A stretch of DNA of 64,000 nucleotides from Bacteroidota bacterium (GTDB lineage Bacteria; Bacteroidota; Bacteroidia; UKL13-3). The stretch's first letter is position 1. Every line of letters starts with the position of its first letter. Shown piece after piece: positions 9,234 through 59,387 of this stretch. The stretch is taken from positions 33,744 through 97,743 of the forward strand of contig JANYDU010000027.1 of NCBI GenBank assembly GCA_025359805.1, written 5' to 3'. A program made the translations under genes and the position numbers. Under the pieces are notes generated by a model. It was given only the letters and a program-made list of their open reading frames with translations. It did no database searches and was not told the DNA's origin.

Positions 9234-11150
9234 TTAATTTCGTCTAAAATTACTCGGTGCACTTTGCATAGCAGGAGGACTTTGCCTCGATGGTGCTTGC
9301 ATTTGTGGAGCACTTTGCTGCATTGGAACCTGATAGTTTGGTCTCATAGGAGCAGCTTGTTGATAGCTTGGTTGCGAATATGATGGTTGACGTGGTTGAG
9401 ATTGTTGCCAAGTATTATTATGGTTTTCCTGCGCATTATGATATTGCTGAGGATAATCATAACTCGGTTGCGCATTATAATTTTGGTTATAATTTGAAGG
9501 AGAGCTCTGATTTAAATTTTGTGAATTGGTGTGCGGATTGCCATTTTGAATAGGATTTGCTGTTTCTTGAGAGTTATTATAATGACGATAATCAACAGAG
9601 GAATTTTGGTCTATGCTTTGTGAATTTATTTTTAGATTCACCTGTTGTTGAGAATTATCAAATTGTTGAGGTTGAATAGCATGATGTTGTTCTTGCGATT
9701 GTGGATTATTGTATACAGGTTGAACAGCATTTGTTGGTTGGCTAATATTTTTAAAATCTTTAGATGTAGAATTATTTTCCAAAGCAGGTTGAATAGTATT
9801 TGACATGGCGGGTTGAGTTTCTTGTACAGTTTTAATACCAGGACTATTTGCAATACTGGCATTCATCGCTGGGTATTTATCTTGATTTGAATTTAAAAAC
9901 TCTTTATTATTTAATGTAGCTTGAGGGTTTGCCACATTATAACTTTCTCTATTCATTTCCATTTGTCCGTATTCTTTAAATAAAGCAGGTCTATTTGCAT
10001 TATTTTTATCCCAATCTTTAGTAATAATTGTTGAATTATGAATACGCCAATCATATACATTTTTGCACACAGGATTATATCCATATGCTCCATTGTGCAT
10101 GTTGTAATATTGATAACAATGATTTGAAAATGCTGAATAGTGATAATGATTTGAAGAATGAAACCAATACCAATTTAAAAAACGTCCTGAAGGCATTCCA
10201 TAATAAACCATTCGATTGTTGTAGCCATAATAATAGCCAAAGTCGTACCAATAAGGATATGGGCGCCAGTATGAATACGTGTACCATGATGGATAACCAA
10301 ACCACCAGTTATATGGATACGAATTATAATTTGTTGGAGCATTAGTTAAAGGAGTAGAATAACTTTGAGTAGCATAACCATTTTCTTTAGCGTAATCTTT
10401 TGTAGCTTGTTGATATTGTTGTTTGGCTAAAGTGTCTTTATCTAAAGTTTGTTGCCAATCTGCTGCATCTTGTTTACTTTTTTGTGATAATACAAGATTT
10501 AATGAATCGGCATTATGAATGACCAATGCAGGATTTTTTTTGTAAACATCACCCACTACCACCGTCATGTGCATATTGGTGGCAAGAACATCCAAAATAT
10601 CAGGCTGATTTAAAAGTGTTTTAAAAGCAGTAATAGTACTTGTTGGATAACCCAACATCAGTTGTTCAAATTCGGAATTATAGGTTTTGTTGCTTTGATT
10701 TATCTTCACAAAAAGGTCGTAATTTTTTGTCCCTTCATCTATTGCAGTTTGACGAATTTCTGAAGGATAAGATGCTAAAACCGTATTAATATCTGCACCA
10801 CTTTTTCTATTGTATTCTGTAATTTTGGTAATCAAACCAGGATAGCGAGTTAAGTTCCAAATTTTTTCTTGTTCCTCTTTTGAATAGGGAGATAAAAGTG
10901 AAGTAAAATCTGCGTTGGTTTTTTTTTGCATCGCACTTAATCGAGCAATAATTTCAGGATTCATGCACGCAATAAAAATAGTTGTACGTACCTCTTTAGG
11001 ATACATAGCCACTGCATCTATTGCTGTTTGGTCGTCTTGATTTACGCGTTGCAATAATGATTGATCATTGGTATTTGTTTGTGCTTGAATTTTTACAGTT
11101 ACTAAAATGATTAAGCAAGCTATAATAGCTGATTTTAATAGCGTTTTCAT
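9234..11150 (-). CDS. Secreted DUF3300-like protein with an aromatic-rich core and a Q/N/P/S-rich low-complexity tail
   Basis: Signal peptide (..VKIQAQ) and helical repeats with YP-x-E/S motifs (AMYPKEVR, ASYPSEIR, LGYPTSTI). These are followed by a Y/W/N-rich block and then a Gln/Pro-rich tail. Confidence 0.75.
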   Translation of the reverse strand: MKTLLKSAIIACLIILVTVKIQAQTNTNDQSLLQRVNQDDQTAIDAVAMYPKEVRTTIFIACMNPEIIARLSAMQKKTNADFTSLLSPYSKEEQEKIWNLTRYPGLITKITEYNRKSGADINTVLASYPSEIRQTAIDEGTKNYDLFVKINQSNKTYNSEFEQLMLGYPTSTITAFKTLLNQPDILDVLATNMHMTVVVGDVYKKNPALVIHNADSLNLVLSQKSKQDAADWQQTLDKDTLAKQQYQQATKDYAKENGYATQSYSTPLTNAPTNYNSYPYNWWFGYPSWYTYSYWRPYPYWYDFGYYYGYNNRMVYYGMPSGRFLNWYWFHSSNHYHYSAFSNHCYQYYNMHNGAYGYNPVCKNVYDWRIHNSTIITKDWDKNNANRPALFKEYGQMEMNRESYNVANPQATLNNKEFLNSNQDKYPAMNASIANSPGIKTVQETQPAMSNTIQPALENNSTSKDFKNISQPTNAVQPVYNNPQSQEQHHAIQPQQFDNSQQQVNLKINSQSIDQNSSVDYRHYNNSQETANPIQNGNPHTNSQNLNQSSPSNYNQNYNAQPSYDYPQQYHNAQENHNNTWQQSQPRQPSYSQPSYQQAAPMRPNYQVPMQQSAPQMQAPSRQSPPAMQSAPSNFRRN

Positions 11151-11359
11151 AAATAGGTTGGTTTAATTAGCAATATCATTTGAAAAACATTTTCGTTTTT
11201 AATTGTAGGTAAACTTACTTCCAAATGTTATACCGTTTTACACCATACTTAAAACTTAATCAACTGTTAATACCATTTTAATTTTTTGCACATTTTTTAG
11301 TATAAAGATGTGAAAACCTTTCTTGCAATACTCATTCCTTCTTTGCAAATTCGCTCACG

Positions 11360-15883: not shown

Positions 15884-16091
15884 TAGTTGTATATTTTTTT
15901 TAAAATGACGGGCAAATGTAATGATTTACGTATATGCTTGTATAAAATTTTACAAACCATATTTTTGCTCGATACCTCCTACAATTGGGAAGCATATTTT
16001 ATAAACATTTTGTATAGTTTAAAAGTTTCAAATGAATGTAGTTTTATGAAGTACTATTTTAATTTAACCTTAATGTTTAGCGTAAAATAAT

Positions 16092-40118: not shown

Positions 40119-41492
40119 TTACATTCTAAAAAGTATCGCCATAATAATTCTGGTTTCTGCCCTCACTAAATCAGGTTTCCAATTTGGGTCTAAAAGTACA
40201 TTTGTATATCCTGTTTGAGATGTTACTCCACCAGCTCCTGCAAAGTATGGAACGCTTGATTCTCTGTGAACCAATTCAACCCTAAATGTAATACTTTGAT
40301 TAGGCATCCAATCAAAATTGGTTGAGCAATCCCAACCTTTAAATTGATCACCAGGATTTGCACTAAAAGGAAAAGCGCCTTCTGGTTGAGTAGGATTACT
40401 ATGATTAGGTAATGGGCTTGCTTGCCCTGTTGGATACAATACTAAATACCTTCCAGGATTGGTCATCACACCACCTCCAATTGTCCATGCTAATTTATTT
40501 TTCGCAAACCACACTCTGTTATAAAACATAGCACTGGCAAAATATTGTGCTGGTCCTTGTGAAGCATTTCCATCACTAAAACCATTTACGCCTCCACCTT
40601 TTTCAAAACCAAAATCGCCCGTTAATGAAAATGCCATTTTACTAATTCCTTTCGATTCGGGTTTGTTTAAATAACGTAGCAATACGCTATTGTCTGAATG
40701 AAATCGAACTCTATCGGGCAAACTATCATTATCAGTTCCATAATAATCATTGGTGAGAATTTTAAAATTACTATTTGGCATCCATGTAATATTAGCGCCA
40801 AACCCAGGCATACTATTAAACTTGCCATAACTTTGCCATCCATTAATAATCCACGGTTCAATTTTTAAATGTTTAGTTGGAAAAATTTGAATTCTTATTC
40901 CATTAAAAAACCAAGGTGTATTATCAGATGTAAAGGAAGCTTGATACTCCCAATTCTCTGGTTGGTAATAAGAATTTAAACCGATGTACGACATAAACAT
41001 ACCTGCATCAATATTAATTCCATACCATTTATTAAAATGATAACCGGCATACGCTTCACTTAAATAACGATACACGTTTGCCAATTCATATTGCCCACGA
41101 TAGGGACTTAAATCGTTGCGAGGAACAACAATAGATCGGGTTCCAAACTGTGTCATCACTCTTGCTCTTGCACCATTATAATTAAAATCTCCACCAAAAT
41201 GCAAAGCAGAAAGTTGTACCTCATTGTTACGTGCTAAAGCCGTTGAACCAACCACCGTATTATCATTTGGATTATTACCCGAGTAGGTATAATTTACATC
41301 CAATAAAATACTGGGAGTAAAGTAGGGCATATTTTTAAATACTGACGAATCTCTACGGTCTGAACCATTTTGCCAAGTTACATCAATGCCTTCAAAAGGT
41401 TCGCCTTTTTGTTGTGCAGATGCCACACTCATCATCAATAATTGACAACTAATAATTGATAATACGAGTATTGATTTTGTAAATATTTTCAT
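40119..41492 (-). CDS. Outer-membrane beta-barrel porin of the kind that accompanies kdp loci in Bacteroidota
   Basis: Signal peptide (..SVASAQQ) and a 457-aa sequence rich in alternating aromatic/polar residues typical of barrels. The family call is from memory only. Confidence 0.65.
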   Translation of the reverse strand: MKIFTKSILVLSIISCQLLMMSVASAQQKGEPFEGIDVTWQNGSDRRDSSVFKNMPYFTPSILLDVNYTYSGNNPNDNTVVGSTALARNNEVQLSALHFGGDFNYNGARARVMTQFGTRSIVVPRNDLSPYRGQYELANVYRYLSEAYAGYHFNKWYGINIDAGMFMSYIGLNSYYQPENWEYQASFTSDNTPWFFNGIRIQIFPTKHLKIEPWIINGWQSYGKFNSMPGFGANITWMPNSNFKILTNDYYGTDNDSLPDRVRFHSDNSVLLRYLNKPESKGISKMAFSLTGDFGFEKGGGVNGFSDGNASQGPAQYFASAMFYNRVWFAKNKLAWTIGGGVMTNPGRYLVLYPTGQASPLPNHSNPTQPEGAFPFSANPGDQFKGWDCSTNFDWMPNQSITFRVELVHRESSVPYFAGAGGVTSQTGYTNVLLDPNWKPDLVRAETRIIMAILFRM

Positions 41493-41621
41493 GATGTTTT
41501 AAGATAATTACACGCTAACATTTTTTATTACGCCTAACAATAAATTATTTTTTTTATTGATGAATAATATTTTGCAAATATGGGTATTCATTTATTAATA
41601 AAATATAAAGAGAGTATTGAT

Positions 41622-41640
41622 GGTATAAAGATTTTATAAA
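41622..41640 (-). promoter_or_regulatory. Candidate KdpE box upstream of the porin gene: TTTATA-AAATC-TTTATA-CC
   Basis: Read on the minus strand this is a 6-5-6 direct repeat. It lies 39 nt upstream of CATATTTG, a near -7 box, and 130 nt upstream of the porin ATG. Confidence 0.6.
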
Positions 41641-41669
41641 AAAGAACTGTAAATTTAAATAATACTTAA

Positions 41670-42347
41670 TTAAGAGAAACGATAGCCAACGCCACTTTCG
41701 GTAATGATATGAGTAGGTTGATTGGGATTGTCTTCAATTTTTTTACGAAGTTGAGCTACAAATACTCTTAAATATTGTGTTTCGGATTGATAACTTACTC
41801 CCCAAATTTCTTTTAAAATAAATTGATGAGTTAGCGCTCTACCTTCATTTTTTACAAACAAGCACATCAAATTATATTCGGTTGAAGTGAGTTTAACCAT
41901 TTCATTATTTCGCTTAACGGATCTTGCTGTAAAATCAACTTGAATATTGCCACAAGTAATGATACTGCTTTGTTCATTGTTGTCATTTCTTCTTATAGAT
42001 GAGCGGATGCGAGCGAGCAATTCTGCTGTGCGAAACGGTTTTGTTAAATAATCGGTGGCGCCATTATCTAATGCCAATACAATATCAGTTTCACTGTTTA
42101 TAACAGATAGTATGATGATAGCTTTGTGATACCAAGTGCGCAGCTCTTTTAAAATTTCATGTCCACTTTTATCAGGCAAACCAATATCTAATAAGATTAA
42201 TTCGGGTGGATGATTTGCAGCCATTATCACACCTTCCTTTCCGGTTGATGCTTGCCAAACTTTATAGTCGTTACTTTCTAAAGTTATTTCAAGTAGCTTA
42301 CGAATTTGTGGTTCGTCATCTATAACTAATATTTCTGCTTTAATCAT
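41670..42347 (-). CDS. kdpE: OmpR-family response regulator, KdpE-like
   Basis: Receiver domain (VIDDEP..LLDIGLPD..TKPF). The winged-helix C-terminus YLRVFVAQLRKKIEDNPNQPTHIITESGVGYRF closely parallels E. coli KdpE (YLRIYMGHLRQKLEQDPARPRHFITETGIGYRF, from memory). Confidence 0.88.
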   Translation of the reverse strand: MIKAEILVIDDEPQIRKLLEITLESNDYKVWQASTGKEGVIMAANHPPELILLDIGLPDKSGHEILKELRTWYHKAIIILSVINSETDIVLALDNGATDYLTKPFRTAELLARIRSSIRRNDNNEQSSIITCGNIQVDFTARSVKRNNEMVKLTSTEYNLMCLFVKNEGRALTHQFILKEIWGVSYQSETQYLRVFVAQLRKKIEDNPNQPTHIITESGVGYRFS

Positions 42348-43422
42348 TTTTTAGGTTGTTTAAAAATGATGTTTCAGAAGGAATTGTAATAGTAAATTTC
42401 GCACCGCCTTCGTTATTGTTTTCCAGTTTTATATTTCCATGATGAGCTTCCACAAAACCTTTTACAATGGATAGTCCCAAGCCCGTTCCACCAGTTTTGG
42501 AATGAGGTAAACGATAAAATTTATCAAATGCAAATTGAATTTCGGAAAGCGGAAAACCCTGTCCATTATCAGAAATAATGATTACGCAATGATTGGATTG
42601 AAATGAAGTTTGAATAGTAATAATTGAATCTTCGAGAGTATATTGAATGGCATTATGAATGATATTATGCAATACTTGTTCCATCAAACCAGCATCCAAA
42701 TTAAATAGAGGAAGACTTTCATTTGCATCAAAAATAATTTTATGATGAGTGTTTTCTGAAGTAAGTTTTTGAATAACAGAAAAGATGAGCTCATTTATAT
42801 CGCACCAATCTAAATGCAATTTTAACATGCTAGTTTCAAGCCTACTCATGTTTAAAAGATTTTCAACTTGTCTGTTCAATCTTATACTTGCCTTGTCAAT
42901 TTCGATTAGTAATTCGGTTTGATTATTTGCCGAAAGTTTTTCTTTATTTTCTTTCAATGTATCTACAGCTCCAATGATTGTTGAAATAGGTGTTCTCAAC
43001 TCGTGCGAAAGAGAATTGAGCAACGTATTATAAAGTTTGATTGTGCTTTCCTTTTCTTCTTTATCTCTCGCTTTTTTTTCGGCTTCACGAATTTTAAAAG
43101 TAAGTACAACATTTACCAATGCAATAATAAAATACATAAAAAACATGAGTAAATCTTCGGTATTATCAATTTGAAAAGTATAAATAGGAGGGATGAAAAA
43201 AAAATTCCAAATTAATGCGCTTAGTACTGCCACAAATAATACAGGCAACATGTCAAATAACATGGCCACTAGTGAAACTGCTACCAAAAGTAGAAGTGCT
43301 ATAATTTTATACCCGATTAAATGAACCGAGAAGAAACAAGCAATTGCAACGGCAATAATCAAAATTATGCTTGTAATAAATTGAGTGATTAAACTATATT
43401 TTCTTGTATTAAAAAGAACCAA
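42340..43422 (-). CDS. Sensor histidine kinase corresponding to the C-terminal half of KdpD (DUF4118 membrane domain, HisKA, HATPase). The N-terminal Kdp sensor/Usp domains are absent.
   Basis: Four hydrophobic helices, an H-box SHELRTPISTIIG and a G-box TGGTGLGLSIV. Overlaps the RR gene by 8 nt. The start is putative (TTG). Confidence 0.85.
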   Translation of the reverse strand: MVLFNTRKYSLITQFITSIILIIAVAIACFFSVHLIGYKIIALLLLVAVSLVAMLFDMLPVLFVAVLSALIWNFFFIPPIYTFQIDNTEDLLMFFMYFIIALVNVVLTFKIREAEKKARDKEEKESTIKLYNTLLNSLSHELRTPISTIIGAVDTLKENKEKLSANNQTELLIEIDKASIRLNRQVENLLNMSRLETSMLKLHLDWCDINELIFSVIQKLTSENTHHKIIFDANESLPLFNLDAGLMEQVLHNIIHNAIQYTLEDSIITIQTSFQSNHCVIIISDNGQGFPLSEIQFAFDKFYRLPHSKTGGTGLGLSIVKGFVEAHHGNIKLENNNEGGAKFTITIPSETSFLNNLKND

Positions 43423-43445
43423 TTTTACTTATTAATTTATGATAA

Positions 43446-43453
43446 CAAATGTA
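43446..43453 (-). promoter_or_regulatory. -7 promoter box TACATTTG (Bacteroidota TAnnTTTG consensus) for the kinase-regulator operon
   Basis: Exact consensus match 24 nt upstream of the TTG start. Confidence 0.55.
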
Positions 43454-43461
43454 TGTTTTAA

Positions 43462-43480
43462 GGTATAAAAATTTTATAAA
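43462..43480 (-). promoter_or_regulatory. Candidate KdpE box upstream of the kinase/regulator operon: TTTATA-AAATT-TTTATA-CC
   Basis: Matches the box at 41622-41640 at 18 of 19 positions. It ends 8 nt upstream of the TACATTTG -7 box. Confidence 0.6.
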
Positions 43481-43550
43481 TAATTAGTTTCATAAAACTT
43501 AATATTGAGCTCTATTTAAAATAATTATTTTCGCCAAAAATTAAACAACA

Positions 43551-44426
43551 TTGAAAAAGAAAATAACCTTTATCATTAATCCCATTTCGGGCGGAATAAG
43601 AAAAGAAACCTTCCCATCTCTCATTGGTAAAAATATTGATAGCAATAAGTTTGATGTGGAAATAAGTTTTACCCGTTCGGCAGCACATAATTTAGAGTTG
43701 GCACAACAAGCTGTTGAGCAAAGAAAAGATATTATTGTTGCCGTAGGTGGTGATGGAACTATTAATAACGTTGCAAAATATGTTACAGGAAGTGAGTCTG
43801 TATTTGGTATGATACCAATGGGATCCGGAAATGGATTGGCAAGGCATTTAAATATTCCACTCAATAATCAAAAAGCACTTCAACTTATTAATCGTCAAAA
43901 AAGTATAAAAATTGATACAGGAAAAGCCAATGACGACTTTTTTATAAATGTAGCGGGTGCGGGTTTTGATGCGCATGTAAGTTGGATGTTTGCCAATGCA
44001 CCGAGTCGTGGTTTTTGGTCGTATGCAAAAATCACTTTAAATGAATTTGCTCAATATAAGTCTCGAGAATATGAATTAATTATTGATGGCAAAAGTATCA
44101 CTGAAAAAGCGTTTTTAATTTGTGTAGCCAATGGCTCTCAATATGGAAACAATGCATTTATAGCCCCAACAGCTGATTTAAAAGATGGTATTTTTGAAGT
44201 GAGTTTACTAAAGCCTTTTAAAAAAAGAAACATGCCTTTTATTGGCTTAGAAATGTTTACCAAAAAGTTTAATAATTCAAAATATGTTACAACATTCAGA
44301 GGAAAACACATTATTATAAAAAGACCCGATGCCGAGGTCGTAAATATTGATGGAGAACCTGTGATGATGGAAAAACTATTAGATATAAAAATAGTACCTG
44401 CTTCTCTTCAAGTTCTCGTTCCATAA
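43551..44426 (+). CDS. Diacylglycerol-kinase-family lipid kinase (YegS-like)
   Basis: FIINPISGG and the VAVGGDGTINNV motif. TTG start. Confidence 0.88.
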   Translation: MKKKITFIINPISGGIRKETFPSLIGKNIDSNKFDVEISFTRSAAHNLELAQQAVEQRKDIIVAVGGDGTINNVAKYVTGSESVFGMIPMGSGNGLARHLNIPLNNQKALQLINRQKSIKIDTGKANDDFFINVAGAGFDAHVSWMFANAPSRGFWSYAKITLNEFAQYKSREYELIIDGKSITEKAFLICVANGSQYGNNAFIAPTADLKDGIFEVSLLKPFKKRNMPFIGLEMFTKKFNNSKYVTTFRGKHIIIKRPDAEVVNIDGEPVMMEKLLDIKIVPASLQVLVP

Positions 44427-44479
44427 TTTGATTTAACAGTTAACCATTTATATTAGTAACCCTTAGTTTGAATTGACTC

Positions 44480-44821
44480 ATGAGCAATAAAAATAAAAAC
44501 AGAGATGGAATTGTTTTTTCAACTGAAAGTAGTTTTGAATACGAATCATTTCAAAACGATGATGCCGAAACTTTGTCCATTCAACAACAAGATCTAAAGG
44601 TGTTTTTGGATAGAAAAGGTGGAGGCAAAATGGTATCAAGAGTAACTGGTTTTATTGGTAAATTTGATGATTTGGAAGAACTTGCAAAATCACTTAAAAA
44701 ACATTGTGGTGTTGGAGGAAGTGTTAAAGATGGAGAAATATTAATACAAGGAGATCATCGAGAAAAGATTATTTTATTTTTAACGAAACAAGGTTATAAA
44801 AGTAAAAAAGCTGGAGGGTAG
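44480..44821 (+). CDS. SUI1/eIF1-family translation initiation factor (YciH-like)
   Basis: GGGKMVSRVTGF and KKHCGVGGSVKDGEILIQGDHREKI. Confidence 0.88.
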   Translation: MSNKNKNRDGIVFSTESSFEYESFQNDDAETLSIQQQDLKVFLDRKGGGKMVSRVTGFIGKFDDLEELAKSLKKHCGVGGSVKDGEILIQGDHREKIILFLTKQGYKSKKAGG

Positions 44822-44876
44822 AATCATTTTTTATTTTTTATTTCTTCATCCATTTAAAGTGCTTTCATCAATAAGT

Positions 44877-44904
44877 ATTAACCACTTATTAAAATGCTAT
44901 TAAA
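44877..44904 (+). promoter_or_regulatory. Three 11-bp-phased direct repeats ATTAAC-cactt-ATTAAA-atgct-ATTAAA upstream of dabA (candidate OmpR-family operator)
   Basis: The phasing is exact. The last 17 nt are identical to 49452-49468. The array ends 38 nt before the TACATTTG -7 box. Confidence 0.65.
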
Positions 44905-44942
44905 AACTCTGACTGCATTAGGTTTGCAGAAATTTTAGAAGA

Positions 44943-44950
44943 TACATTTG
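44943..44950 (+). promoter_or_regulatory. -7 promoter box TACATTTG for dabAB, with a TTTG -33-like element at 44923-44926
   Basis: Exact TAnnTTTG match 28 nt upstream of the dabA ATG (44978). Confidence 0.6.
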
Positions 44951-44977
44951 TGCTCGTTTTTTGATAAAAATAAATTA

Positions 44978-47473
44978 ATGAAAGCACATCCATCTTCTTT
45001 CGATGAACATGAAGTAATTCATGATTTAAAACACTACTTACCCGCACAAGCTCCACTAAAAGATTTTATCCATCACAATACTTTACACGCTTTTCAAAAT
45101 CAAAAATTTTATGAAGGAACCAGAAACGCCTCTGAAATATTTGGCTATAAAGTTTCTCTTTCTCTTTTTGAATACAGAGAATTATTTCATCAACATAAAA
45201 TCAGAAAAGATATTCTTGAAAAAATAATTACGGATAGAAAAGGCATTGAAAACAGCAAAGTTTGGCACGATAAATTATTAGTTAATGATTATCATCATCC
45301 TGATTTACCAAGAATAGGAGCGCTTCGGGCAAATTGGAAAAAACAATATAAAATTGATTTGGATTCACTTGTTCATCCCATACTTTTTAGGTTGTTGTGC
45401 AGCTATCTTGATCAAGGAATTGCTATTTGGAATTTTCCTGTTTCACACAAAGGCTTTATTACTTCTTTAAGAGAAATGGAAAGCAATAGTTTTACCAGTT
45501 TTTTTAGAACAAAAAGAGCTAAGGATTTATTGCTAAACCACGATACAAAAATTGAACACTTGTTAAAATTTTTAGTGGGTGACGAATCTCTTTATAAACA
45601 ATATCTTTTTGATCAACAGTTTGCGCACCAAGGTTGGTCGGGTATGGTATCGGCTGTTGAGGATCAACCACAAACATTATTAGACCATAAAAAAATCACA
45701 CTTCATGAACTCATCTTTTTTGAAACTTTATTAGAAATTGATTCACTCGATTTTCAGTTTGGAGAAATTTGGGCGCCATTAAGTGCTAAGCTTTCTGAAA
45801 GACCTGTTGGGCTTTTTGCACCAACTACAGAAACCGAATTAATTGAAGTGCTTGAAATTTGGCAAGATGCTTTTGAGTGGAGTTTTTATGATGAAGTACT
45901 TGCGGGAATTGAATTAGAAAAAATCACTACAAAAAGAAATACCGAATCCAGTTTTCAATCGCTATTTTGTATTGATGATAGAGAATGTTCGTTCAGGAGG
46001 TATTTAGAAGAATTTGATCCATCATGTGAAACTTTTGGAACCCCAGGATTTTTTGGTGTGGAGTTTTTTTATCAACCAGAATTTGGGAAATTTTACACAA
46101 AAGTTTGTCCTGCTCCAGTTACTCCCAAATATTTAATTAAAGAAATTGGAACTACTGAAAAAAGAGAAACGGATGTGTATTTTTCAAAACATTCCCACTC
46201 TTTTCATAGCGGTTGGATTATTTCACAAACACTTGGTTTTTGGTCTGCTTTCCGATTATTCCTAAACATTTTCAGACCCTCAACAAGTCCTGCAACTGCA
46301 TCATCATTTAAACACATGGATAGGTTTTCAAAACTTACTATTGAAAACAAAAATATTGCTGATGTAGAAAATGATTTACAAATTGGTTTTACCATTGATG
46401 AAATGGTAACTCGTGTAGAAGGCGTTTTAAAAAGCATTGGGTTGATTGAAAATTTTGCGTCAATCATTTATGTAGTTGGGCATGGTTCAAGTAGTGTAAA
46501 TAATCCACACTATGCTGCGTATGATTGTGGTGCTTGTTCGGGCAGGGCAGGTTCCGTTAATTCAAGAGTGTTTTCAAATATGGCTAATCATCTAAAAGTG
46601 AGAGAAGTATTAGCAACAAAAGGAATTCATATTCCTGATGAAACACAATTTGTGGGAGCACTTCACGATACAACAAGAGATGAAATTGCATTTTATGATG
46701 AGCACTCTTTATCGCCCAAAAATGTATTGGCTCATAAAAAAAATATAGCTACATTTTACACAGTTTTGAATCATAATTCAAAAGAAAGGTCAAGAAGATT
46801 TGAATCCATCAACACCAAACTTAGTGCTGAAAAAATTCATGAAAAAATTCTTCGCAGATCGGTTTCATTATTTGAACCACGCCCAGAGTTAAATCATGCG
46901 ACAAACGCATTATGTATTGTAGGGAGAAGAAATCTTACTAAGCATTTATTTTTAGATAGACGTGCCTTTTTAAATTCATATGATTACGAAATTGATCCTG
47001 AAGGAAAGATTCTTTTAAATATTATGAAGCCACTAGGACCCGTTTGTGGAGGGATTAACTTAGAGTATTATTTTTCAAGAGTGGATAATCAAAAATTGGG
47101 AGCGGGTACAAAACTTCCACATAATGTGATGGGGCTATTTGGCGTTGCCAATGGAATTGATGGTGATTTACGTCCTGGTCTTCCGAGCCAAATGATTGAA
47201 GTGCATGACCCAATTCGTTTGATGATTATTGTTGAACATTTTCCCGAAGTGGTTTTAAAAACTATAAAAACTTTACCCGAAGTGTATGAATGGTATATTA
47301 ATGAATGGATTCATTTGATTGCTGTAAATCCTGAAACAAAAAAACTTTTTGAGTTTAAAAATGGAGATTTTGTTTCATACATTCCAATTAAAAAACAGAT
47401 TGATACCACATCAAATGTTGAAACTTTAACAGAATCATCTCCAGAAAATATTTCGGTTCACTTAATTAAATAA
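44978..47473 (+). CDS. dabA: DabA (DUF2309), the beta-carbonic-anhydrase-like subunit of the DAB inorganic-carbon pump
   Basis: Contains a C-x-D motif (FCIDDRECSF). Also contains His and Cys 15 residues apart (VVGHGSSSVNNPHYAAYDCGACSG). This matches the Zn-ligand pattern C351/D353/H524/C539 reported for H. neapolitanus DabA (from memory). Confidence 0.9.
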   Translation: MKAHPSSFDEHEVIHDLKHYLPAQAPLKDFIHHNTLHAFQNQKFYEGTRNASEIFGYKVSLSLFEYRELFHQHKIRKDILEKIITDRKGIENSKVWHDKLLVNDYHHPDLPRIGALRANWKKQYKIDLDSLVHPILFRLLCSYLDQGIAIWNFPVSHKGFITSLREMESNSFTSFFRTKRAKDLLLNHDTKIEHLLKFLVGDESLYKQYLFDQQFAHQGWSGMVSAVEDQPQTLLDHKKITLHELIFFETLLEIDSLDFQFGEIWAPLSAKLSERPVGLFAPTTETELIEVLEIWQDAFEWSFYDEVLAGIELEKITTKRNTESSFQSLFCIDDRECSFRRYLEEFDPSCETFGTPGFFGVEFFYQPEFGKFYTKVCPAPVTPKYLIKEIGTTEKRETDVYFSKHSHSFHSGWIISQTLGFWSAFRLFLNIFRPSTSPATASSFKHMDRFSKLTIENKNIADVENDLQIGFTIDEMVTRVEGVLKSIGLIENFASIIYVVGHGSSSVNNPHYAAYDCGACSGRAGSVNSRVFSNMANHLKVREVLATKGIHIPDETQFVGALHDTTRDEIAFYDEHSLSPKNVLAHKKNIATFYTVLNHNSKERSRRFESINTKLSAEKIHEKILRRSVSLFEPRPELNHATNALCIVGRRNLTKHLFLDRRAFLNSYDYEIDPEGKILLNIMKPLGPVCGGINLEYYFSRVDNQKLGAGTKLPHNVMGLFGVANGIDGDLRPGLPSQMIEVHDPIRLMIIVEHFPEVVLKTIKTLPEVYEWYINEWIHLIAVNPETKKLFEFKNGDFVSYIPIKKQIDTTSNVETLTESSPENISVHLIK

Positions 47474-47478
47474 ACAGC

Positions 47479-49347
47479 ATGATATCGTTAATCCCACTTT
47501 TTATATTTATTCCACTTTTAGGATTTATTATTAGTTTACTTATTCCCGGTAAAAAAGAAAATTTGCTGTCTATGGCAGCATTTGTTAGTGTTGGGGCGCA
47601 TTTTATTTTATTTATTATTTTTCTGTTTTATTGGTTTTTAAATGGGAGAGTGGCACTCAACTTAAAAGAAATAGTCATTTATCAAACATCCAATTATGAA
47701 TTTTATCTCGACTTTTATTTTGATAAAATAACTGCCGTTTATCTTTTTGTGGGTTCATTTCTCACATTTTTAGTAACCATTTATAGCCGTGCTTATCTTC
47801 ATCGCGAAAAGGGATACAAACGTTTTTTTAATACTATTCTATTCTTTTATTTGGGATATACCATCACCATTATATCAGGAAATTTTGAAACGCTTTTTAT
47901 CGGTTGGGAGATTTTGGGTATCTCTTCTTTTTTATTAATCGCTTTTTATCGAGACAGATATTTACCTGTAAAAAATGCAGTAAAAGTTTTTTCAATTTAT
48001 AGAATTAGTGATATAGGTTTAATACTTGCCATGTGGGCAACACATCATTTATGGCACGAAAATATTACGTTTTTAAAACTTAGTAATTATGAATTAGCTC
48101 ACGAGCATCTTCAAAATCATACTTGGATTGGCATCTTTATTTCTCTGATGATTTTACTAACAGCTGCCGCTAAATCGGCACAACTTCCATTCTCATCATG
48201 GTTACCTAGAGCGATGGAAGGACCAACTCCATCAAGCGCCATTTTTTACGGTTCACTTTCTGTACATCTTGGCGTTTTTTTGTTGCTCAGAACTTTTCCT
48301 TTTTGGGAATATCAATTATCGGTTCGGATTTTTATTTCACTTTTAGGTTTATTTACAGCCATTGTTGCAAGTGGAATTGCAAGAGTTCAATCTTCCGTTA
48401 AAAGTCAGATTGCTTATGCTTCCATTGCTCAAATCGGACTTATATTTATTGAAGTGGCGGCTGGTTTTGAAAACCTTGCCCTATTTCATTTTGCCGGAAA
48501 CGCTTTCTTAAGAACTTATCAATTATTAGTTTCTCCTTCGGTTGTGAGTTATTTAATTAGAGAACAATTTTATAACTTTTCGCCACGTGCGCACACTATT
48601 GAAGATTCGTTTCCAAAAAGATTAGAATACTCGTTTTATATTTTGTGCCTAAAGGAATTTAACCTGGATTCATTTATGTATCGTTTCTTTTGGAATCCTT
48701 TTAAACGAGCCGGAAAAAGGTTAGATTTTTTAACGGTGAAACGTGCATTTATTTTCTTTGTTCCTGCATATTTGGTAGGCTTAGTGTTTGTTTTTAATGA
48801 AGCCTATATTCCAGAAAATCTTCATGAATATTTACCTGTATTTTTTGCTTTAATTGGTTTGGTGATGGTGCTCAAATCATTTACGGAAAGAAAAAATGTG
48901 CAGATGAGTTGGTTGCTACTTATTATGAATCATTTTTGGATTGCATTAGCTATTTCGTTTAATGAGCATTTTAATTATAGCCAAAATGTACTTTATTTAA
49001 GTGGAATTGTTGTGTGTGGAATGCTTGGTTATTTATGTCTTCGCAGGTTAAAAATTTTTGAAACCAATATTGATTTGGATCAGTTTCATGGGCACTCACA
49101 CAAACACCCCAAAATTGCATTTGTATTTTTACTATCGTGTTTGGGATTAACTGGTTTTCCTATTACTCCAACGTTTTTGGGAGAAGATTTAATTTTTAGT
49201 CATATTCATGAAAATCAATCTATGCTTGCCCTTTTTGTATCGTTAAGTTTTATCATTGATGGTATTTCTGTAATCAGAATTTATGCCCGAGTTTTTTTGG
49301 GGCCGCATGTAAAATCAGTTTATGATATGGCTTATCGTTCATCATAA
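47479..49347 (+). CDS. dabB: DabB, NuoL/MrpA-like proton-conducting membrane subunit of the DAB pump
   Basis: Multi-pass Proton_antipo_M-type sequence (GWEILGISSFLLIAF, AAAKSAQLPFSSWLPRAMEGPTPSSA). Starts 5 nt after dabA. Confidence 0.88.
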   Translation: MISLIPLFIFIPLLGFIISLLIPGKKENLLSMAAFVSVGAHFILFIIFLFYWFLNGRVALNLKEIVIYQTSNYEFYLDFYFDKITAVYLFVGSFLTFLVTIYSRAYLHREKGYKRFFNTILFFYLGYTITIISGNFETLFIGWEILGISSFLLIAFYRDRYLPVKNAVKVFSIYRISDIGLILAMWATHHLWHENITFLKLSNYELAHEHLQNHTWIGIFISLMILLTAAAKSAQLPFSSWLPRAMEGPTPSSAIFYGSLSVHLGVFLLLRTFPFWEYQLSVRIFISLLGLFTAIVASGIARVQSSVKSQIAYASIAQIGLIFIEVAAGFENLALFHFAGNAFLRTYQLLVSPSVVSYLIREQFYNFSPRAHTIEDSFPKRLEYSFYILCLKEFNLDSFMYRFFWNPFKRAGKRLDFLTVKRAFIFFVPAYLVGLVFVFNEAYIPENLHEYLPVFFALIGLVMVLKSFTERKNVQMSWLLLIMNHFWIALAISFNEHFNYSQNVLYLSGIVVCGMLGYLCLRRLKIFETNIDLDQFHGHSHKHPKIAFVFLLSCLGLTGFPITPTFLGEDLIFSHIHENQSMLALFVSLSFIIDGISVIRIYARVFLGPHVKSVYDMAYRSS

Positions 49348-49440
49348 ACCATTCAAAATATTCTCACACTAATTTCGCTATTTTTTATCAAACTTAATCT
49401 GTGAAATCTGTGGGTAAGTAATATTCGTTTTATATCAACA

Positions 49441-49468
49441 ATTAAACAAAAATTAAAATGCTATTAAA
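49441..49468 (+). promoter_or_regulatory. Three 11-bp-phased direct repeats ATTAAA-caaaa-ATTAAA-atgct-ATTAAA upstream of the SulP gene
   Basis: Same architecture as 44877-44904. The array ends 37 nt before the TACATTTG -7 box. Confidence 0.65.
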
Positions 49469-49505
49469 TAAGTAATGATGATAGCACAGAACTTTATTAA
49501 GGCAA

Positions 49506-49513
49506 TACATTTG
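49506..49513 (+). promoter_or_regulatory. -7 promoter box TACATTTG for the SulP gene
   Basis: Exact TAnnTTTG match 45 nt upstream of the ATG at 49558. Confidence 0.6.
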
Positions 49514-49557
49514 TTCTTCGAAAAAATAAAAATCATTATAAAATAATATAAAAAATT

Positions 49558-51210
49558 ATGACACAAAATAAAGTAAAACTAGAAATTCCTAAAGATTATA
49601 TCCCAGGTTTAAAACAAAACTGGAAGAATGATTTGCTATCAGGTTTTATTATTTCGCTTATCGCATTGCCACTTTGTTTGGGAATTGCAATGGCTTCAGG
49701 CGTTCCACCAATGGCAGGTATTATAGCAGGTATTATTGGCGGTATTGTATTGTCGCTCACAAGTGGTTCATACGTTACCATAAATGGTCCTGCAGCAGGT
49801 TTAGCCATCATTGTTTTAATGTCGATGGAAGGATTTAAAAAAATGGCACCAGCAGGATTATCTCCTGAACAAGTTGATATGTTTGCCTACCAATGTACAC
49901 TTGCAGTTGGTGTTGGTTGTGGTGTTCTTCAATTATTATTTGGATTGGTTAAAGCTGGAGTTTTAAGCAATTTTTTTCCATCTTCTGTAGTGCATGGAAT
50001 GTTAGCAGCTATTGGAATCATGATTTTTTCAAAACAAATTCATACTGCTTTAGGAGTAAAACCTCAAGGCAAAGAAATGTTAGAAATTATTGGTGAAATT
50101 CCACACAGCATTCTAAACATGAACCCTGATGTAGTAATTATTTCATTAGTGAGTTTGGCTATATTAATTGGATTGCCAATGATAAAAAATAAATATGTAA
50201 AAATGCTTCCAGCTCCACTCATTGTTGTTTTAATTGCTATTCCACTTGGTCATTATTTTGATTTAGAGCATGAACATACTTATTTGTTTTTAGATACTCA
50301 CCAATATACACTTGGTCCAAAATTTTTGGTAAGTCTTCCTGCAAATGTTTTAGATGGAATTATTTTCCCGCGCTTTGATATGTTGTTTACGGGTTTCGGA
50401 ATTCAAATGGTTATTACTTATGCTTTAGTTGCCAGTTTAGAATCATTACTTACTGCCGCAGCAATTGATAAATTAGACCCTTACAAACGTGAATCTAATT
50501 TTAACCGCGAATTATTTGCAAAAGGTTCGGGTAATATTTTATCGAGTATGATTGGTGGATTGCCAATGATTGCCGAAGTGGTTCGTAGTTCTGCCAATTT
50601 AAATAATGGCGCAAAAACACGTTGGAGTAACTTCTTCCATGGAATGTTTTTGTTAATTTTTGTTGTGTTTTTAGGAACAATGATTCATCAAATACCCTTG
50701 GCTGCACTTGCCGCTATGCTTATGGTTACAGGTTATAGATTAGCTTCACCTAAAGAATTTTTAAAAACATACCATATTGGAAAAGAGCAATTGTTTATTT
50801 TTGTTTCTACCATTATTGTAACTATTGCTACCGATTTGTTATACGGAATTGCTGCTGGTATTTTAATTAAATTTATTATCCATACCATTAACGGAGTACC
50901 TCTTAAAAGTTTATTTAAACCTTTTTTAACTATTAATGAAATTGATGATACACATTATGAAATTGATGTAAATCATTCAGCTATTTTTAGTAACTATATT
51001 GGCTTAAGAAAGCAAATAGATGCGTTACCAAAAGGTAAAAATATTGTTGTTGATTTTACTAATGCAAAATTAGTAGATCATACTGTAATGGAAAATATGC
51101 ACGAGATGGCTCATAAGTATGAAGACAATGGCGGGTCGTTTAAATTAATTGGATTTGAATCACATAAACCTTTATCAGCGCATCCTCACGCATCACGTAA
51201 AAAAGTGTGA
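49558..51210 (+). CDS. SulP-family anion transporter with C-terminal STAS domain (BicA-type bicarbonate transporter candidate)
   Basis: 550 aa with a multi-pass SulP core (SGFIISLIALPLCLGIAMASGVPP) and a STAS-like tail (IVVDFTNAKLVDHTVMENM). Confidence 0.88.
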   Translation: MTQNKVKLEIPKDYIPGLKQNWKNDLLSGFIISLIALPLCLGIAMASGVPPMAGIIAGIIGGIVLSLTSGSYVTINGPAAGLAIIVLMSMEGFKKMAPAGLSPEQVDMFAYQCTLAVGVGCGVLQLLFGLVKAGVLSNFFPSSVVHGMLAAIGIMIFSKQIHTALGVKPQGKEMLEIIGEIPHSILNMNPDVVIISLVSLAILIGLPMIKNKYVKMLPAPLIVVLIAIPLGHYFDLEHEHTYLFLDTHQYTLGPKFLVSLPANVLDGIIFPRFDMLFTGFGIQMVITYALVASLESLLTAAAIDKLDPYKRESNFNRELFAKGSGNILSSMIGGLPMIAEVVRSSANLNNGAKTRWSNFFHGMFLLIFVVFLGTMIHQIPLAALAAMLMVTGYRLASPKEFLKTYHIGKEQLFIFVSTIIVTIATDLLYGIAAGILIKFIIHTINGVPLKSLFKPFLTINEIDDTHYEIDVNHSAIFSNYIGLRKQIDALPKGKNIVVDFTNAKLVDHTVMENMHEMAHKYEDNGGSFKLIGFESHKPLSAHPHASRKKV

Positions 51211-51266
51211 TCGGCAATTAATTACTTATAATCACAGATAGTTTTTATCTCTTTATAAATATAAAA

Positions 51267-51944
51267 ATGAAAATATTAGTTATTGAAGACGAACCTAAAG
51301 TAGCTTCTTTTATTAAACAAGGATTAGAAGAACAATCCAATGATGTAACAGTTGCATTTGATGGGTTTTTTGGAAAAAAATTAGCCACTGAAAATCATTA
51401 TGATGTGATTATTATGGATTTGATGATTCCATATATTAATGGTTTAGAGCTATGCAAAACACTTAGAGCCGAAGGAATAAAAACTCCAGTATTAATGCTT
51501 ACGGCACTTGGAACAACAGATGATAAAGTAACAGGGCTTGATGCAGGGGCTGATGATTATTTAGTAAAACCTTTTGAGTTTAAAGAATTGCTGGCTCGTT
51601 TGCGTGCACTCACAAAAAGATATACCGATAATGTACATGAAATAAAAGTACTTGGCATTGCAGATTTGGAAATGAATTTAGATGAAAAAAGTGTACGCAG
51701 ATCGGGGAAACAAATTGAACTTACCGCAAAAGAATTTGGCTTGCTTGAATATTTTTTGAAGAACAAAAATCGTGTTGTTTCCAGAACTGAAATTGCTGAA
51801 AAAGTTTGGGATATACATTTTGATACTGGTACTAACGTTATTGACGTGTATATTAATTTTCTTCGCAAAAAAATTGATAAAGAGTTTACACCAAAACTTA
51901 TTCATACTATGGTGGGCATGGGTTATGTAATGAAAGTAGAGTAG
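51267..51944 (+). CDS. OmpR/PhoB-family response regulator with no adjacent histidine kinase
   Basis: Receiver domain (VIEDEP..IMDLMIP..VKPF) and winged helix (LTAKEFGLLEYFL..IHTMVGMGYV). The next gene is convergent (coaE). Confidence 0.9.
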   Translation: MKILVIEDEPKVASFIKQGLEEQSNDVTVAFDGFFGKKLATENHYDVIIMDLMIPYINGLELCKTLRAEGIKTPVLMLTALGTTDDKVTGLDAGADDYLVKPFEFKELLARLRALTKRYTDNVHEIKVLGIADLEMNLDEKSVRRSGKQIELTAKEFGLLEYFLKNKNRVVSRTEIAEKVWDIHFDTGTNVIDVYINFLRKKIDKEFTPKLIHTMVGMGYVMKVE

Positions 51945-51976
51945 TAAATATTTTTTTTGATTTAAAACATACTGCA

Positions 51977-52570
51977 TTAAACAGCACCAAATTGTTTATG
52001 CAATTTCAATACTTGAGGAATTAATAACTCAATCTCATTATTTATAATTTCAAATTGTCCAAGGGATAATTTTTCTTCTTCGCTCATTTGATTTTTCATG
52101 CGTGATAAAACAGCATCACGAGAAATGCCATCTCGTTTCATAGCACGTTCAATTCGCAACTCTTGAGGAGCTGTTACCACAATTATTTTATCTAATTGCT
52201 TATAACTTTCACTTTCAAACATTAATGCGGCTTCTTTAATGAGGTATGTTGAAGAAGTTTGTGCTGAACACCAATTATCAAAATCTTTATATACAGCAGG
52301 GTGAACGACTCCATTTAGTTGCTCCAATAAGTGTTTGTTTTGAAACGCCTGAGATGAAATAAAAGCACGATGGAGCACTCCATTTTGATAAGATTCTTCT
52401 CCAAATATTTGTTTAATTTTTTGGATGAGTAAAACATCTTCAACCATTAATATCTTAGCTCGAGAATCGGCATCATAAACAGAAATACCAAGCTGCATAA
52501 ATATTTTACTAACGGTACTTTTGCCGCTCCCAATGCAACCAGTTATTCCTATTTTTAGTTTTGGGTTCAC
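51977..52570 (-). CDS. coaE: Dephospho-CoA kinase
   Basis: P-loop GITGCIGSGKST. GTG start at 52570. Confidence 0.9.
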   Translation of the reverse strand: MNPKLKIGITGCIGSGKSTVSKIFMQLGISVYDADSRAKILMVEDVLLIQKIKQIFGEESYQNGVLHRAFISSQAFQNKHLLEQLNGVVHPAVYKDFDNWCSAQTSSTYLIKEAALMFESESYKQLDKIIVVTAPQELRIERAMKRDGISRDAVLSRMKNQMSEEEKLSLGQFEIINNEIELLIPQVLKLHKQFGAV

Positions 52571-52584
52571 AGTTGTCAGTTATC

Positions 52585-52631
52585 AGTTCACAGTTTTTAG
52601 TTGATAAACAAAGCACTAAAAACTGTGAACT
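52585..52631 (-). promoter_or_regulatory. Perfect 17-bp stem hairpin between yajC and coaE, embedded in CAGTT heptamer repeats
   Basis: AGTTCACAGTTTTTAGT (52585-52601) pairs with ACTAAAAACTGTGAACT (52615-52631). A third copy of GTTCACAGTT at 52565-52574 contains the coaE GTG start. Confidence 0.7.
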
Positions 52632-52636
52632 AACAA

Positions 52637-52969
52637 TTATTTTTTCTCTTCTTTTTTAGGAGCATTTAATAGCTGAGAAGCTTCCATAGAAATAGAAGTC
52701 TTATCAACTTTTAATTTTGTTCCTTCACTTTCGATAATAAAATAAGTATCGCCCACATCAGTAATTTTCCCATGAATACCACCGATGGTAACTATCTTAA
52801 GTCCTTTATCTAAAGTTTCACGAAATTTCTTTTGTGCTTTGGTTTTCTTCATTTGTGGGTATATCATGAAGAAATAAAATACCACCATAATTAAAATTAA
52901 TGGAAGGAATGATGAAATTGGATTGCTGCCTTGTGCTGGCGACATCAAAAAAATGTTTAGCATTGTCAT
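52637..52969 (-). CDS. yajC: Preprotein translocase subunit YajC
   Basis: 110 aa with a single TM segment followed by FYFFMIYPQMKKTKAQKKF and IVTIGGIHGKI. Confidence 0.9.
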   Translation of the reverse strand: MTMLNIFLMSPAQGSNPISSFLPLILIMVVFYFFMIYPQMKKTKAQKKFRETLDKGLKIVTIGGIHGKITDVGDTYFIIESEGTKLKVDKTSISMEASQLLNAPKKEEKK

Positions 52970-52994
52970 ATTTAGTTATTTGTTATTAGTTTAA

Positions 52995-53474
52995 TCAATG
53001 TGAATTTGGTAAGGTTGTTTGAGGTTTTGCTTTTATAATTCCACCAATAGTAAGCGTGGTGGTTAATGGATTTGTATTGGCAGTAACCATTACTTCTTTT
53101 CTAAATGCATCAATGCGCATTTCGCTATTAAATTTTACTTTTATTTTCCCTTCACCACCCGGACTAATAGGTTCTTTAGGATAATCAGGAACGGTACATC
53201 CGCAGCTTGCCGTTGCACTCGAAATTAATAAATCAGTACCTCCTGTATTTTTAAACTTAAATTCATATTCTACAATTTCGCCTTGTGTAATAGTGCCAAA
53301 ATCGTGTTCGGTTTTTTCAAAAATAATTGTTGCTCCATCTTCAGAGTTAGTTTGTGTTTTTGAACTATCAGCCGTTGCCGCAATATTCACTAAATCAGTT
53401 GATGCCTTTTGTGTTTTTTTTTCACCACAAGAAAAAATAAAAACAGTTGCAGTTAATAAAATTACTGTTCGCAT
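52995..53474 (-). CDS. DUF1573 domain lipoprotein
   Basis: Lipobox ..VFIFSCG from ATG 53474 and the characteristic ATASCGCT motif. Confidence 0.85.
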   Translation of the reverse strand: MRTVILLTATVFIFSCGEKKTQKASTDLVNIAATADSSKTQTNSEDGATIIFEKTEHDFGTITQGEIVEYEFKFKNTGGTDLLISSATASCGCTVPDYPKEPISPGGEGKIKVKFNSEMRIDAFRKEVMVTANTNPLTTTLTIGGIIKAKPQTTLPNSH

Positions 53475-59046: not shown

Positions 59047-59111
59047 GTGCAAAAAATTAATATTTATTTAAAGTGCTATGAAAAATTATACCCAAATTAA
59101 ACTGACGCAAC

Positions 59112-59387
59112 ATGATTCAATTTGAAACAAATAGCTCACCTTTTTTTATTGCAAATAAAAACTATTGTGAAAAAATTGAGGCCAATCTTAATGCAATAAA
59201 TTTAAACTGTTCGGGTTTTTGCAATAGTTACGGTTACGAAATTGAAACCACTTTTGTTAGACAAAATATCACTTACAATTTTATAAACCATCAAACTACA
59301 CAAAATGTAATTGTAATTCCCATGAATGCAAATGAGTCGTTTATTACAATACTCATCATAAAGGGGATGAATAAAAAGCATTGGTAA
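59112..59387 (+). CDS. Hypothetical protein. Coding status is uncertain.
   Basis: 91-aa ORF in an AT-rich region. It competes with an antisense 134-aa ORF, and I recognise no motif. Confidence 0.3.
   Translation: MIQFETNSSPFFIANKNYCEKIEANLNAINLNCSGFCNSYGYEIETTFVRQNITYNFINHQTTQNVIVIPMNANESFITILIIKGMNKKHW

Follow-up and report, generated by a model that had tools for sequence, protein, structure and literature searches.

We analysed a stretch of 64,000 nucleotides of DNA from a Bacteroidota bacterium of the UKL13-3 lineage (NCBI GenBank assembly GCA_025359805.1, contig JANYDU010000027.1, positions 33,744 to 97,743 of the forward strand), which we call the window. It carries the genes dabA and dabB of a DAB-type CO2 pump, followed by the SulP-family transporter gene sulP and by a gene for a response regulator of the OmpR/PhoB family, RR2. 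Arrays of ATTAAA boxes, repeated in direct orientation with a period of 11 bp, are found upstream of dabA, upstream of sulP and upstream of a third gene, which encodes a secreted protein of 638 amino acids (Table 1). These arrays are real and non-random: they are conserved, they keep fixed distances from the -7 box of the promoter and they co-occur with orthologues of RR2. Going by the sequence comparisons described below, the arrays are probably operators for RR2, from which it would be expected to activate dabAB, sulP-RR2 and the gene of the 638-amino-acid protein from upstream.

The genes dabA and dabB have the arrangement that characterises a DAB (DabAB) CO2 pump, in which a gene with the PF10070 domain adjoins a NuoL/Mrp-like DabB gene. 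The start of dabA at the ATG at position 44978 agrees with its homologues, which align from residue 1 of its product. dabB begins 5 nt past the end of dabA, almost every related locus has the same dabA-dabB order, and the two genes are probably on one transcript. sulP adjoins dabAB in most of the 80 dabA loci which we collected from reference genomes (1.44 Mb, best DabA identity 71%). With 115.8 bits against a cutoff of 880 bits for the BicA model (NCBIfam NF050096), the product of sulP is assigned to the SulP family only, and it is the linkage to dabAB alone that points to bicarbonate as its substrate. RR2 matches the structures of DrrD, PrrA and PhoP over its full length, and the region of its recognition helix is conserved among its orthologues. 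The gap between sulP and RR2 is 56 nt and no terminator is predicted between them, so that both genes are probably co-transcribed and RR2 would be autoregulated via the sulP promoter.

Table 1. Arrays, -7 boxes and genes in the window (positions are those of the window)
Feature	Position	Strand	Description
Array 1	44877..44905	+	7-mers ATTAACC, ATTAAAA, ATTAAAA, period 11 bp; upstream of dabA
Array 2	49441..49469	+	7-mers ATTAAAC, ATTAAAA, ATTAAAT, period 11 bp; upstream of sulP
Array 3	11254..11282	-	7-mers ATTAAAA, ATTAACA, ATTAAGT, period 11 bp; between yceG (+) and the 638-aa open reading frame (-)
TACATTTG	44943..44950	+	likely sigma-A -7 box of the dabAB promoter; 38 nt past array 1
TACATTTG	49506..49513	+	likely -7 box of the sulP(-RR2) promoter; 37 nt past array 2
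AACATTTG	11222..11229	-	-7-like box with 7/8 consensus matches; 36 nt past the 17-mer core of array 3
dabA	44978..47473	+	DUF2309/DabA, carbonic-anhydrase-like subunit of the DAB CO2 pump; Pfam PF10070, 718.5 bits
dabB	47479..49347	+	NuoL/Mrp-like membrane subunit; Pfam Proton_antipo_M and Proton_antipo_N
sulP	49558..51210	+	SulP-family anion transporter; Pfam Sulfate_transp PF00916, 210 bits
RR2	51267..51944	+	OmpR/PhoB-family response regulator; receiver PF00072 and Trans_reg_C PF00486
638-aa open reading frame	9234..11150	-	secreted, signal peptide; DUF3300-like; probable third target

The arrays at dabA and sulP had been reported in the initial annotation of the window, and both sequences were read correctly there. 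The hexamers at dabA are ATTAAC (44877-82), ATTAAA (44888-93) and ATTAAA (44899-904), separated by cactt and atgct, and those at sulP are ATTAAA (49441-46), ATTAAA (49452-57) and ATTAAA (49463-68), separated by caaaa and atgct. The 17 nt described as common to both arrays are identical (ATTAAAATGCTATTAAA). The distance from the array to TACATTTG, which had been given as 38-39 nt, is 38 nt at dabA, but 37 nt at sulP. Array 3, on the other hand, had been missed, and the initial statement that no such array was found in the other intergenic regions read in the window does not stand. Its hexamers read ATTAAA-atggt-ATTAAC-agttg-ATTAAG on the minus strand (11282..11255). Pooled over 24 boxes, the repeat unit is the 7-mer ATTAAAA followed by 4 nt, with an invariant TTAA. 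The positionally conserved core is a two-box 17-mer, ATTAAAATGSTATTAAM; the extra third box lies upstream of this core at dabA and sulP and downstream of it at the promoter with array 3, where boxes 1 and 2 read ATTAAAATGGTATTAAC and their end is 36 nt from AACATTTG.

In Flavobacterium psychrophilum, mapping of the transcriptome has located the sigma-A TAnnTTTG box at -12 to -5 (PMC9723704). With the -7 boxes set to this position, the ATTAAA boxes lie at about -50 to -78 from the inferred transcription starts (array 1 at about -78 to -50 for dabA, array 2 at about -77 to -49 for sulP), which agrees with the -50 to -80 estimated initially. The -7 boxes of dabA and sulP are identical, as had been noted, but this identity is weak evidence by itself, since the window has 107 TAnnTTTG sites and TACATTTG accounts for 12 of them. 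A second, perfect TAnnTTTG match before dabA, TAGGTTTG (44919-44926, plus strand, 14 nt past array 1), may be an alternative -7 box or a -33-like TTTG for the TACATTTG promoter with a spacer of 16 nt. In a pairwise alignment of the dabA and sulP promoters, nothing is alike beyond the array, the -7 box and some single bases here and there. The likeness is not that of a long duplicated segment or of the end of a mobile element. Transposon ends were ruled out as well, because the arrays around dabAB are in direct and not in inverted orientation.

The window has a GC content (guanine plus cytosine) of 32.5% and contains 103 and 109 copies of ATTAAA on its two strands, which could favour a chance likeness in AT-rich DNA, or a promoter fragment that was duplicated without any function. 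The initial annotation had itself named a motif common in the random AT-rich intergenic DNA of this genome as what would overturn its proposal, and the shuffle and period controls show that in the window the motif is not of this kind. The three-box pattern with at most one mismatch matches only the dabA and sulP sites in the window, against 0.06 matches expected from shuffled sequences. ATTAA-N6-ATTAA occurs seven times on both strands of the window, and six of the seven are inside the three arrays. Three TTAA at an exact period of 11 bp are found three times in the window, compared to one occurrence at a period of 17 and none at periods 6-16 (other than 11) and 18. In the window together with 98 further loci (about 1.8 Mb), the 11-bp period has 19 such triplets, and each of the other periods has 0-4. 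Together with the fixed geometry and an array that is kept in a genome of 54% GC, these controls effectively refute an origin by chance.

Further matches in the window were examined and set aside. When up to three mismatches to the 17-mer were allowed, a match at 11134-50 turned out to be the coding start ATGAAAACGCTATTAAA, translated as MKTLLK, and is taken as chance; the remaining matches are isolated. The two-box site ATTAAG-gttaa-ATTAAA at 16059-16074 on the minus strand, between a thiolase gene (14705-15883, minus strand) and an MBOAT gene (16092-17537, plus strand), has a geometry that fits neither of the two promoter architectures described below, and we take it as chance. A weak 17-mer-like match at 59056-59088 on the plus strand (ATTAAT-attta-TTTAAA-gtgct-ATGAAA), which ends 24 nt before an open reading frame of 91 amino acids (59112-59387), lacks the conserved geometry and is probably chance too.

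A link between the arrays and a regulator comes from the orthologues of RR2, of which there are many, with 72-97% identity. They are found in several neighbourhoods: DAGK-SUI1-RR2-kinase (loci L086/87, L090/91, L092, L101), next to Crp (L081-83), epimerase-RR2 (L084/85), a gene of 425 amino acids followed by RR2 and a kinase (L096-98), and sulP-RR2 (the window, L093, L094/95). Every strict array in 283 kb of these loci lies directly upstream of RR2 or of sulP-RR2. Arrays in this position are present in five contexts (L081-83; L084/85; L086/87 and L090/91; L096-98; the window, L093 and L094). Four boxes are found before RR2 in L081-83 and L084/85. In the latter, RR2 and the gene before it are read in the same direction, so that the intergenic region holds the RR2 promoter only. 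Three boxes are found before RR2 in L096-98 and before sulP-RR2 in L093 and L094/95, and L086/87 and L090/91 have two-box sites. The array of L093 is identical to that of sulP in the window.

The L094 locus has a uniform GC content of 54%, and its SulP is 56% identical to that of the window. Upstream of its sulP we found ATTAAC-ggtct-ATTAAA-atgcc-ATTAAA, then 36 nt and then TACATTTG. The only sequence that L094 and the window have in common before sulP is ATTAAC-N5-ATTAAAATGCCATTAAA-N36-TACATTTG, and the flanks are unrelated. The RR2 proteins of both loci are 88% identical despite GC contents of 54% and 32.5%, an unusually high conservation. Array 3 is also kept outside the window: in L099 it is found as ATTAAAAaaaaGTTAACAggttATTAAGT, between the orthologues of yceG and of the open reading frame. 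Genes of 246-249 amino acids stand beside RR2 or sulP in L081, L084 and L094; those of L081 and L084 are homologous to each other, that of L094 is unrelated, and none of them has a counterpart in the window.

An operator upstream of the regulator's own gene is the usual signature of autoregulated two-component systems. On the level of sequence, the arrays before RR2 orthologues in five contexts look like such an autoregulation, and they support the initial choice of the adjacent regulator as the candidate that would bind the arrays.

Besides the RR2 loci, arrays are also found at dabA and sulP promoters of other genomes. In the 80 dabA loci there are five strict arrays, four of which are at dabA or sulP promoters. 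Three Cytophagales loci (L010, L018 and L043) each have one of them upstream of dabA, the fourth is in L018 between dabB and sulP, and a weaker array is found before sulP in L043. The arrays of these three loci are inverted compared to those of the window, so that the coding strand reads TTTTAAT. Of the two-box sites in the 80 loci, 11 of 56 matches fall near dabA or sulP, within 2.3% of the sequence. This is suggestive, but upstream regions are AT-rich, and for this reason we based our conclusions on arrays of at least three boxes and not on the enrichment of two-box sites.

Some of the 80 loci show other arrangements in the same place. L056 (3090-3125) and L074 (2395-2430) are from metagenome-assembled genomes of Flavobacteriales with 65% GC, in which sulP is divergent from a regulator gene whose product is 50% identical to RR2 and which is followed by a kinase gene. 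The intergenic region contains phased degenerate boxes, CTCTCAT, TyTTAAT, sACTTAG and CGCTCAT on the sulP strand, including ATTAAAATGCA. These boxes end 10-11 nt before GAnGTTTG, counted by eye, which in two close relatives is only a hint. A TTTAAT-N5-TCTAAT pair is found about 150 nt upstream of dabA in the same loci. Judging by the raw upstream sequence alone, a putative LysR-like gene in divergent orientation and a ATCGGATATATCGAT-like dyad in the intergenic region (about 9850-10000) take the place of TTAA arrays in L033, L036 and L046, which are proteobacterial dabA loci of the Nitrotoga type.

The distance between the boxes and the -7 box follows one of two geometries. In six independent TTTTAAT arrays (L010 dabA, L018 dabA, L018 sulP, L043 dabA, L081 RR2 and L084 RR2), the 8-mer exactly 10 nt after the last box is nAnnTTTG in all six cases, with the sequences CACCTTTG, GACTTTTG, CAATTTTG, CAAATTTG, GAGATTTG and AAACTTTG in the same order. 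By comparison, nAnnTTTG has a background frequency of 0.0021 per position. We refer to this spacing as the N10 rule. In these promoters the boxes cover the -33 region and the -7 box is without its consensus first T, as one would expect if a class-II activator like PhoB or PmrA were at work. The second geometry is that of the lineage of the window. In its four promoters (those of dabA, sulP, L094 sulP and the 638-aa gene), 36-38 nt separate the inverted core from a downstream [T/A]ACATTTG, a canonical or near-canonical box. Patterns based on the two geometries gave one stray match each when searched over about 1.8 Mb, and one of these strays is upstream of an adenylate kinase gene.

A-tracts that recur once per helical turn bend DNA. 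The units of the arrays are AT-rich and have a period of 11 bp, and phased TTAAAA tracts could thus be sites of intrinsic curvature or of a nucleoid-associated protein, which boost the promoters without a dedicated regulator. We consider this improbable. The invariant part of the unit is TTAA and not an A-tract. In genomes that range from 32 to 56% GC, the arrays are limited to a few types of gene (dabA, sulP, RR2 and the 638-aa gene), and in 6 of 6 cases their distance to the -7 box agrees to the single base, which is tighter than curvature needs. Even less probable is that a LysR-type regulator reads a TTA-N9-TAA dyad within the 17-mer, as regulators of this type do at the carbon-uptake operons of autotrophs. 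TTAAAATGCTATTAA does hold an imperfect dyad of the T-N11-A type, but the repeats are direct and come in three to four, sometimes five, units. Moreover, a Pfam search found no LysR-family domain among ten neighbouring open reading frames, and arrays also stand before RR2 in loci where no called gene has a LysR-type domain.

The arrays thus resemble the operators of OmpR-family regulators, as the initial annotation had proposed from their direct repeats, and the comparative data, the fixed distances to the -7 box and the likeness to SaeR and PmrA boxes support this assignment at the level of sequence. Operators of this family have head-to-tail half-sites of 6-7 bp whose centres are about 10-11 bp apart. 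In the arrays we found such half-sites at an exact period of 11 bp, a fixed position and orientation relative to the promoter, an associated regulator with receiver and Trans_reg_C domains, and an operator before the regulator's own gene. SaeR of Staphylococcus aureus binds GTTAAN6GTTAA, in which the TTAA is essential; many of its natural sites are ATTAA-N6-GTTAA, and the sae P1 promoter is one of its targets (PMC5083920). SaeR is, like RR2, a member of the OmpR family, and its site shares with the arrays the direct repetition of (G/A)TTAA at an 11-bp period, with 6 nt between the repeats. In contrast, SaeR is a virulence regulator of Firmicutes, whereas the arrays of the window have 3-5 boxes with a preferred 7-mer ATTAAAA and belong to Bacteroidota sigma-A promoters with the -7 box TAnnTTTG.

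The PmrA box of Enterobacteria is CTTAAT-N5-xTTAAT and is bound head-to-tail by the phosphorylated dimer (PMC3973317). Its half-site xTTAAT is the complement of ATTAAx with the same 5-bp spacer, and the complement of the arrays, TTTAAT-N5-TTTAAT, has the form of a PmrA box. The PmrA/BasR box is reported to replace the -35 element (PMC10570014), which resembles the TTTTAAT-N10-nAnnTTTG promoters found here. However, RR2 scores 159.3 bits with the PmrA model (NCBIfam NF007928), for which the cutoff is 330, and is thus no PmrA orthologue, and the promoters of the window itself have the boxes inverted and farther upstream. In the PhoP regulon of Salmonella, direct boxes lie about 12 nt upstream of the -10 element at phoP and ancestral genes, whereas genes that were acquired horizontally have reverse boxes 30-58 nt upstream (PMC3335776). 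The arrays show two comparable architectures: at RR2 genes the boxes are direct and 10 nt from the -7 box, and at dabAB and sulP in the lineage of the window, to which dabAB seems to have come by acquisition, they are reverse and 36-38 nt upstream. The half-site sequence, the sigma factor and the phylum are different, and the architectures here are deduced from sequence alone.

Among curated families, CusR/CopR/CzcR (TIGR01387) scores best for RR2 with 248.8 bits, below the cutoff of 279.2, and the CusR equivalog model gives 227.9 bits against a cutoff of 420. For the kinase encoded after RR2 in relatives, the CusS type scores best with 212 bits, again below the cutoff (292.55). There are no metal-efflux genes near RR2. 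The CusR box is an inverted repeat, unlike the direct repeats found here. The LysR-type regulators CbbR, CcmR and CmpR share the target class, the genes of inorganic-carbon uptake, but they belong to another protein family and bind dyad-symmetric sites, and the ten neighbouring open reading frames searched here include no LysR-family gene.

If the arrays are operators for RR2, one winged-helix domain would contact each 11-bp unit of ATTAAAA and 4 nt. Dimers of phosphorylated RR2 would occupy the two-box 17-mer core head-to-tail, and the extra boxes would take one more protomer or dimer. Placed at about -50 to -78, RR2 would then most likely stimulate the sigma-A RNA polymerase in a class-I-like way, as in architecture V of PhoP. 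The targets would be dabAB, sulP-RR2, with positive autoregulation, and the gene of the secreted DUF3300-like protein. RR2 as the binder, activation as the effect and the common transcript of sulP and RR2 are all deduced and not observed. A limitation of inorganic carbon is a plausible signal, guessed from two of the three targets. The orthologues of RR2 are mostly in loci without dab or sulP, and for this reason CO2 or bicarbonate is not established as the signal, which may be broader.

The third probable target, the 638-amino-acid protein, has repeated 'YP' motifs, a middle part rich in tyrosine and tryptophan (for example YPYNWWFGYPSWYTYSYWRPYPYWYDFGYYYGY) and a long tail rich in Q, N, S and P. 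It has no Pfam match itself, while its homologues P0248 and P0323 carry PF11737 (DUF3300), and its homologues are confined to Bacteroidota. With this promoter included, the initial proposal that one regulator co-controls both inorganic-carbon uptake units is supported, but the regulon is not restricted to carbon uptake.

A second two-component pair precedes the dab cluster on the minus strand (40119-43422). It consists of a KdpE-like response regulator, RR1 (41670-42347), and a kinase (42340-43422) in which DUF4118, HisKA and HATPase domains are recognised, and a BBP2/OmpL-like porin (40119-41492) follows the pair. An Rfam scan of 43000-53000 gave nothing credible.

Several observations weigh against RR2 as the regulator of these promoters. 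Most of the 80 dabA loci have no array, and neither the locus with the closest DabA (L001) nor those with the closest SulP (L015, L054) have a convincing one. No RR2 orthologue is found within 10 kb of the arrays in the Cytophagales loci L010, L018 and L043. The RR2 orthologues of L092 and L101 (74% and 72% identity) have no clear upstream array, and the two-box sites of L086 and L090 break the N10 rule. A cognate kinase of RR2 was looked for in the window and none was found. The orientation of the boxes in the window is opposite to that at the RR2 promoter of relatives, and reversed sites upstream could modulate or repress transcription instead of activating it. Array 3 could serve the divergent yceG instead, although the N10 rule does not hold for yceG. 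Finally, the position of RR2 beside sulP could partly reflect a rearrangement.

The array-bearing loci without an RR2 orthologue nearby and the RR2 genes without an array would also fit operators for another regulator that binds tandem repeats, for example the KdpE-like RR1, with RR2 being a co-regulated target only. AT-rich half-sites with an 11-bp period are used by many regulators of the OmpR family, and an array before RR2 shows that RR2 is regulated but not by which regulator. We nevertheless regard another regulator as unlikely, because the arrays track RR2 through five unrelated neighbourhoods, for which autoregulation is the usual reading, as for phoP. RR1 in particular has no ATTAAAA array near its gene, its kinase gene or the porin gene, and its DNA-binding domain is only 29% identical to that of RR2.

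Relatives have the order DAGK-SUI1-RR2-kinase (L086, L090, L092, L101), whereas in the window (43551-51944) dabA, dabB and sulP stand between SUI1 and RR2. There is no kinase after RR2 in the window, where coaE follows on the other strand. No DabA with more than 72% identity was found in a database of 5.8 billion proteins, while RR2 orthologues reach 88-97%. These identities, together with the adjacent SUI1 and RR2 genes of relatives, suggest that dabAB was acquired and the locus rearranged. The GC content of dabAB-sulP, overall and at third codon positions (GC3), shows no anomaly, so that any acquisition would be old or from a donor of similar composition.

A wider reading, which we put forward as tentative and rather doubtful, is that RR2 and a kinase that is unlinked or lost form a hitherto undescribed two-component system that senses inorganic carbon (CO2 or bicarbonate) in heterotrophic Bacteroidota. 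Such a system would switch on the DAB pump, SulP and the DUF3300-like protein via two orientation-specific architectures, of which the reverse one would have evolved on acquired uptake genes.

DAB pumps with linked SulP transporters are widespread in heterotrophs. Our search, made in one library of papers, returned no paper on the regulation of DAB or SulP genes outside of autotrophs, and none in Bacteroidota. The operator is of a well-known kind and its mechanism conventional; what is new is the small regulon that it defines, and the assignment of the regulator to its targets is credible. The analysis offers a concrete circuit, with the operator ATTAAAA-N4 at a period of 11 bp, RR2 as the candidate regulator and three promoters in one genome, and it extends to dabA and sulP of Cytophagales. 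For a phylum whose sigma-A promoters are unusual, it also provides a parallel, drawn from sequence, to the rule known for PhoP in Salmonella, where direct boxes are near the promoter and reverse ones far upstream of it. If the LysR-like reading of the Nitrotoga-type loci is correct, the same uptake module would be controlled there by a different regulatory solution.

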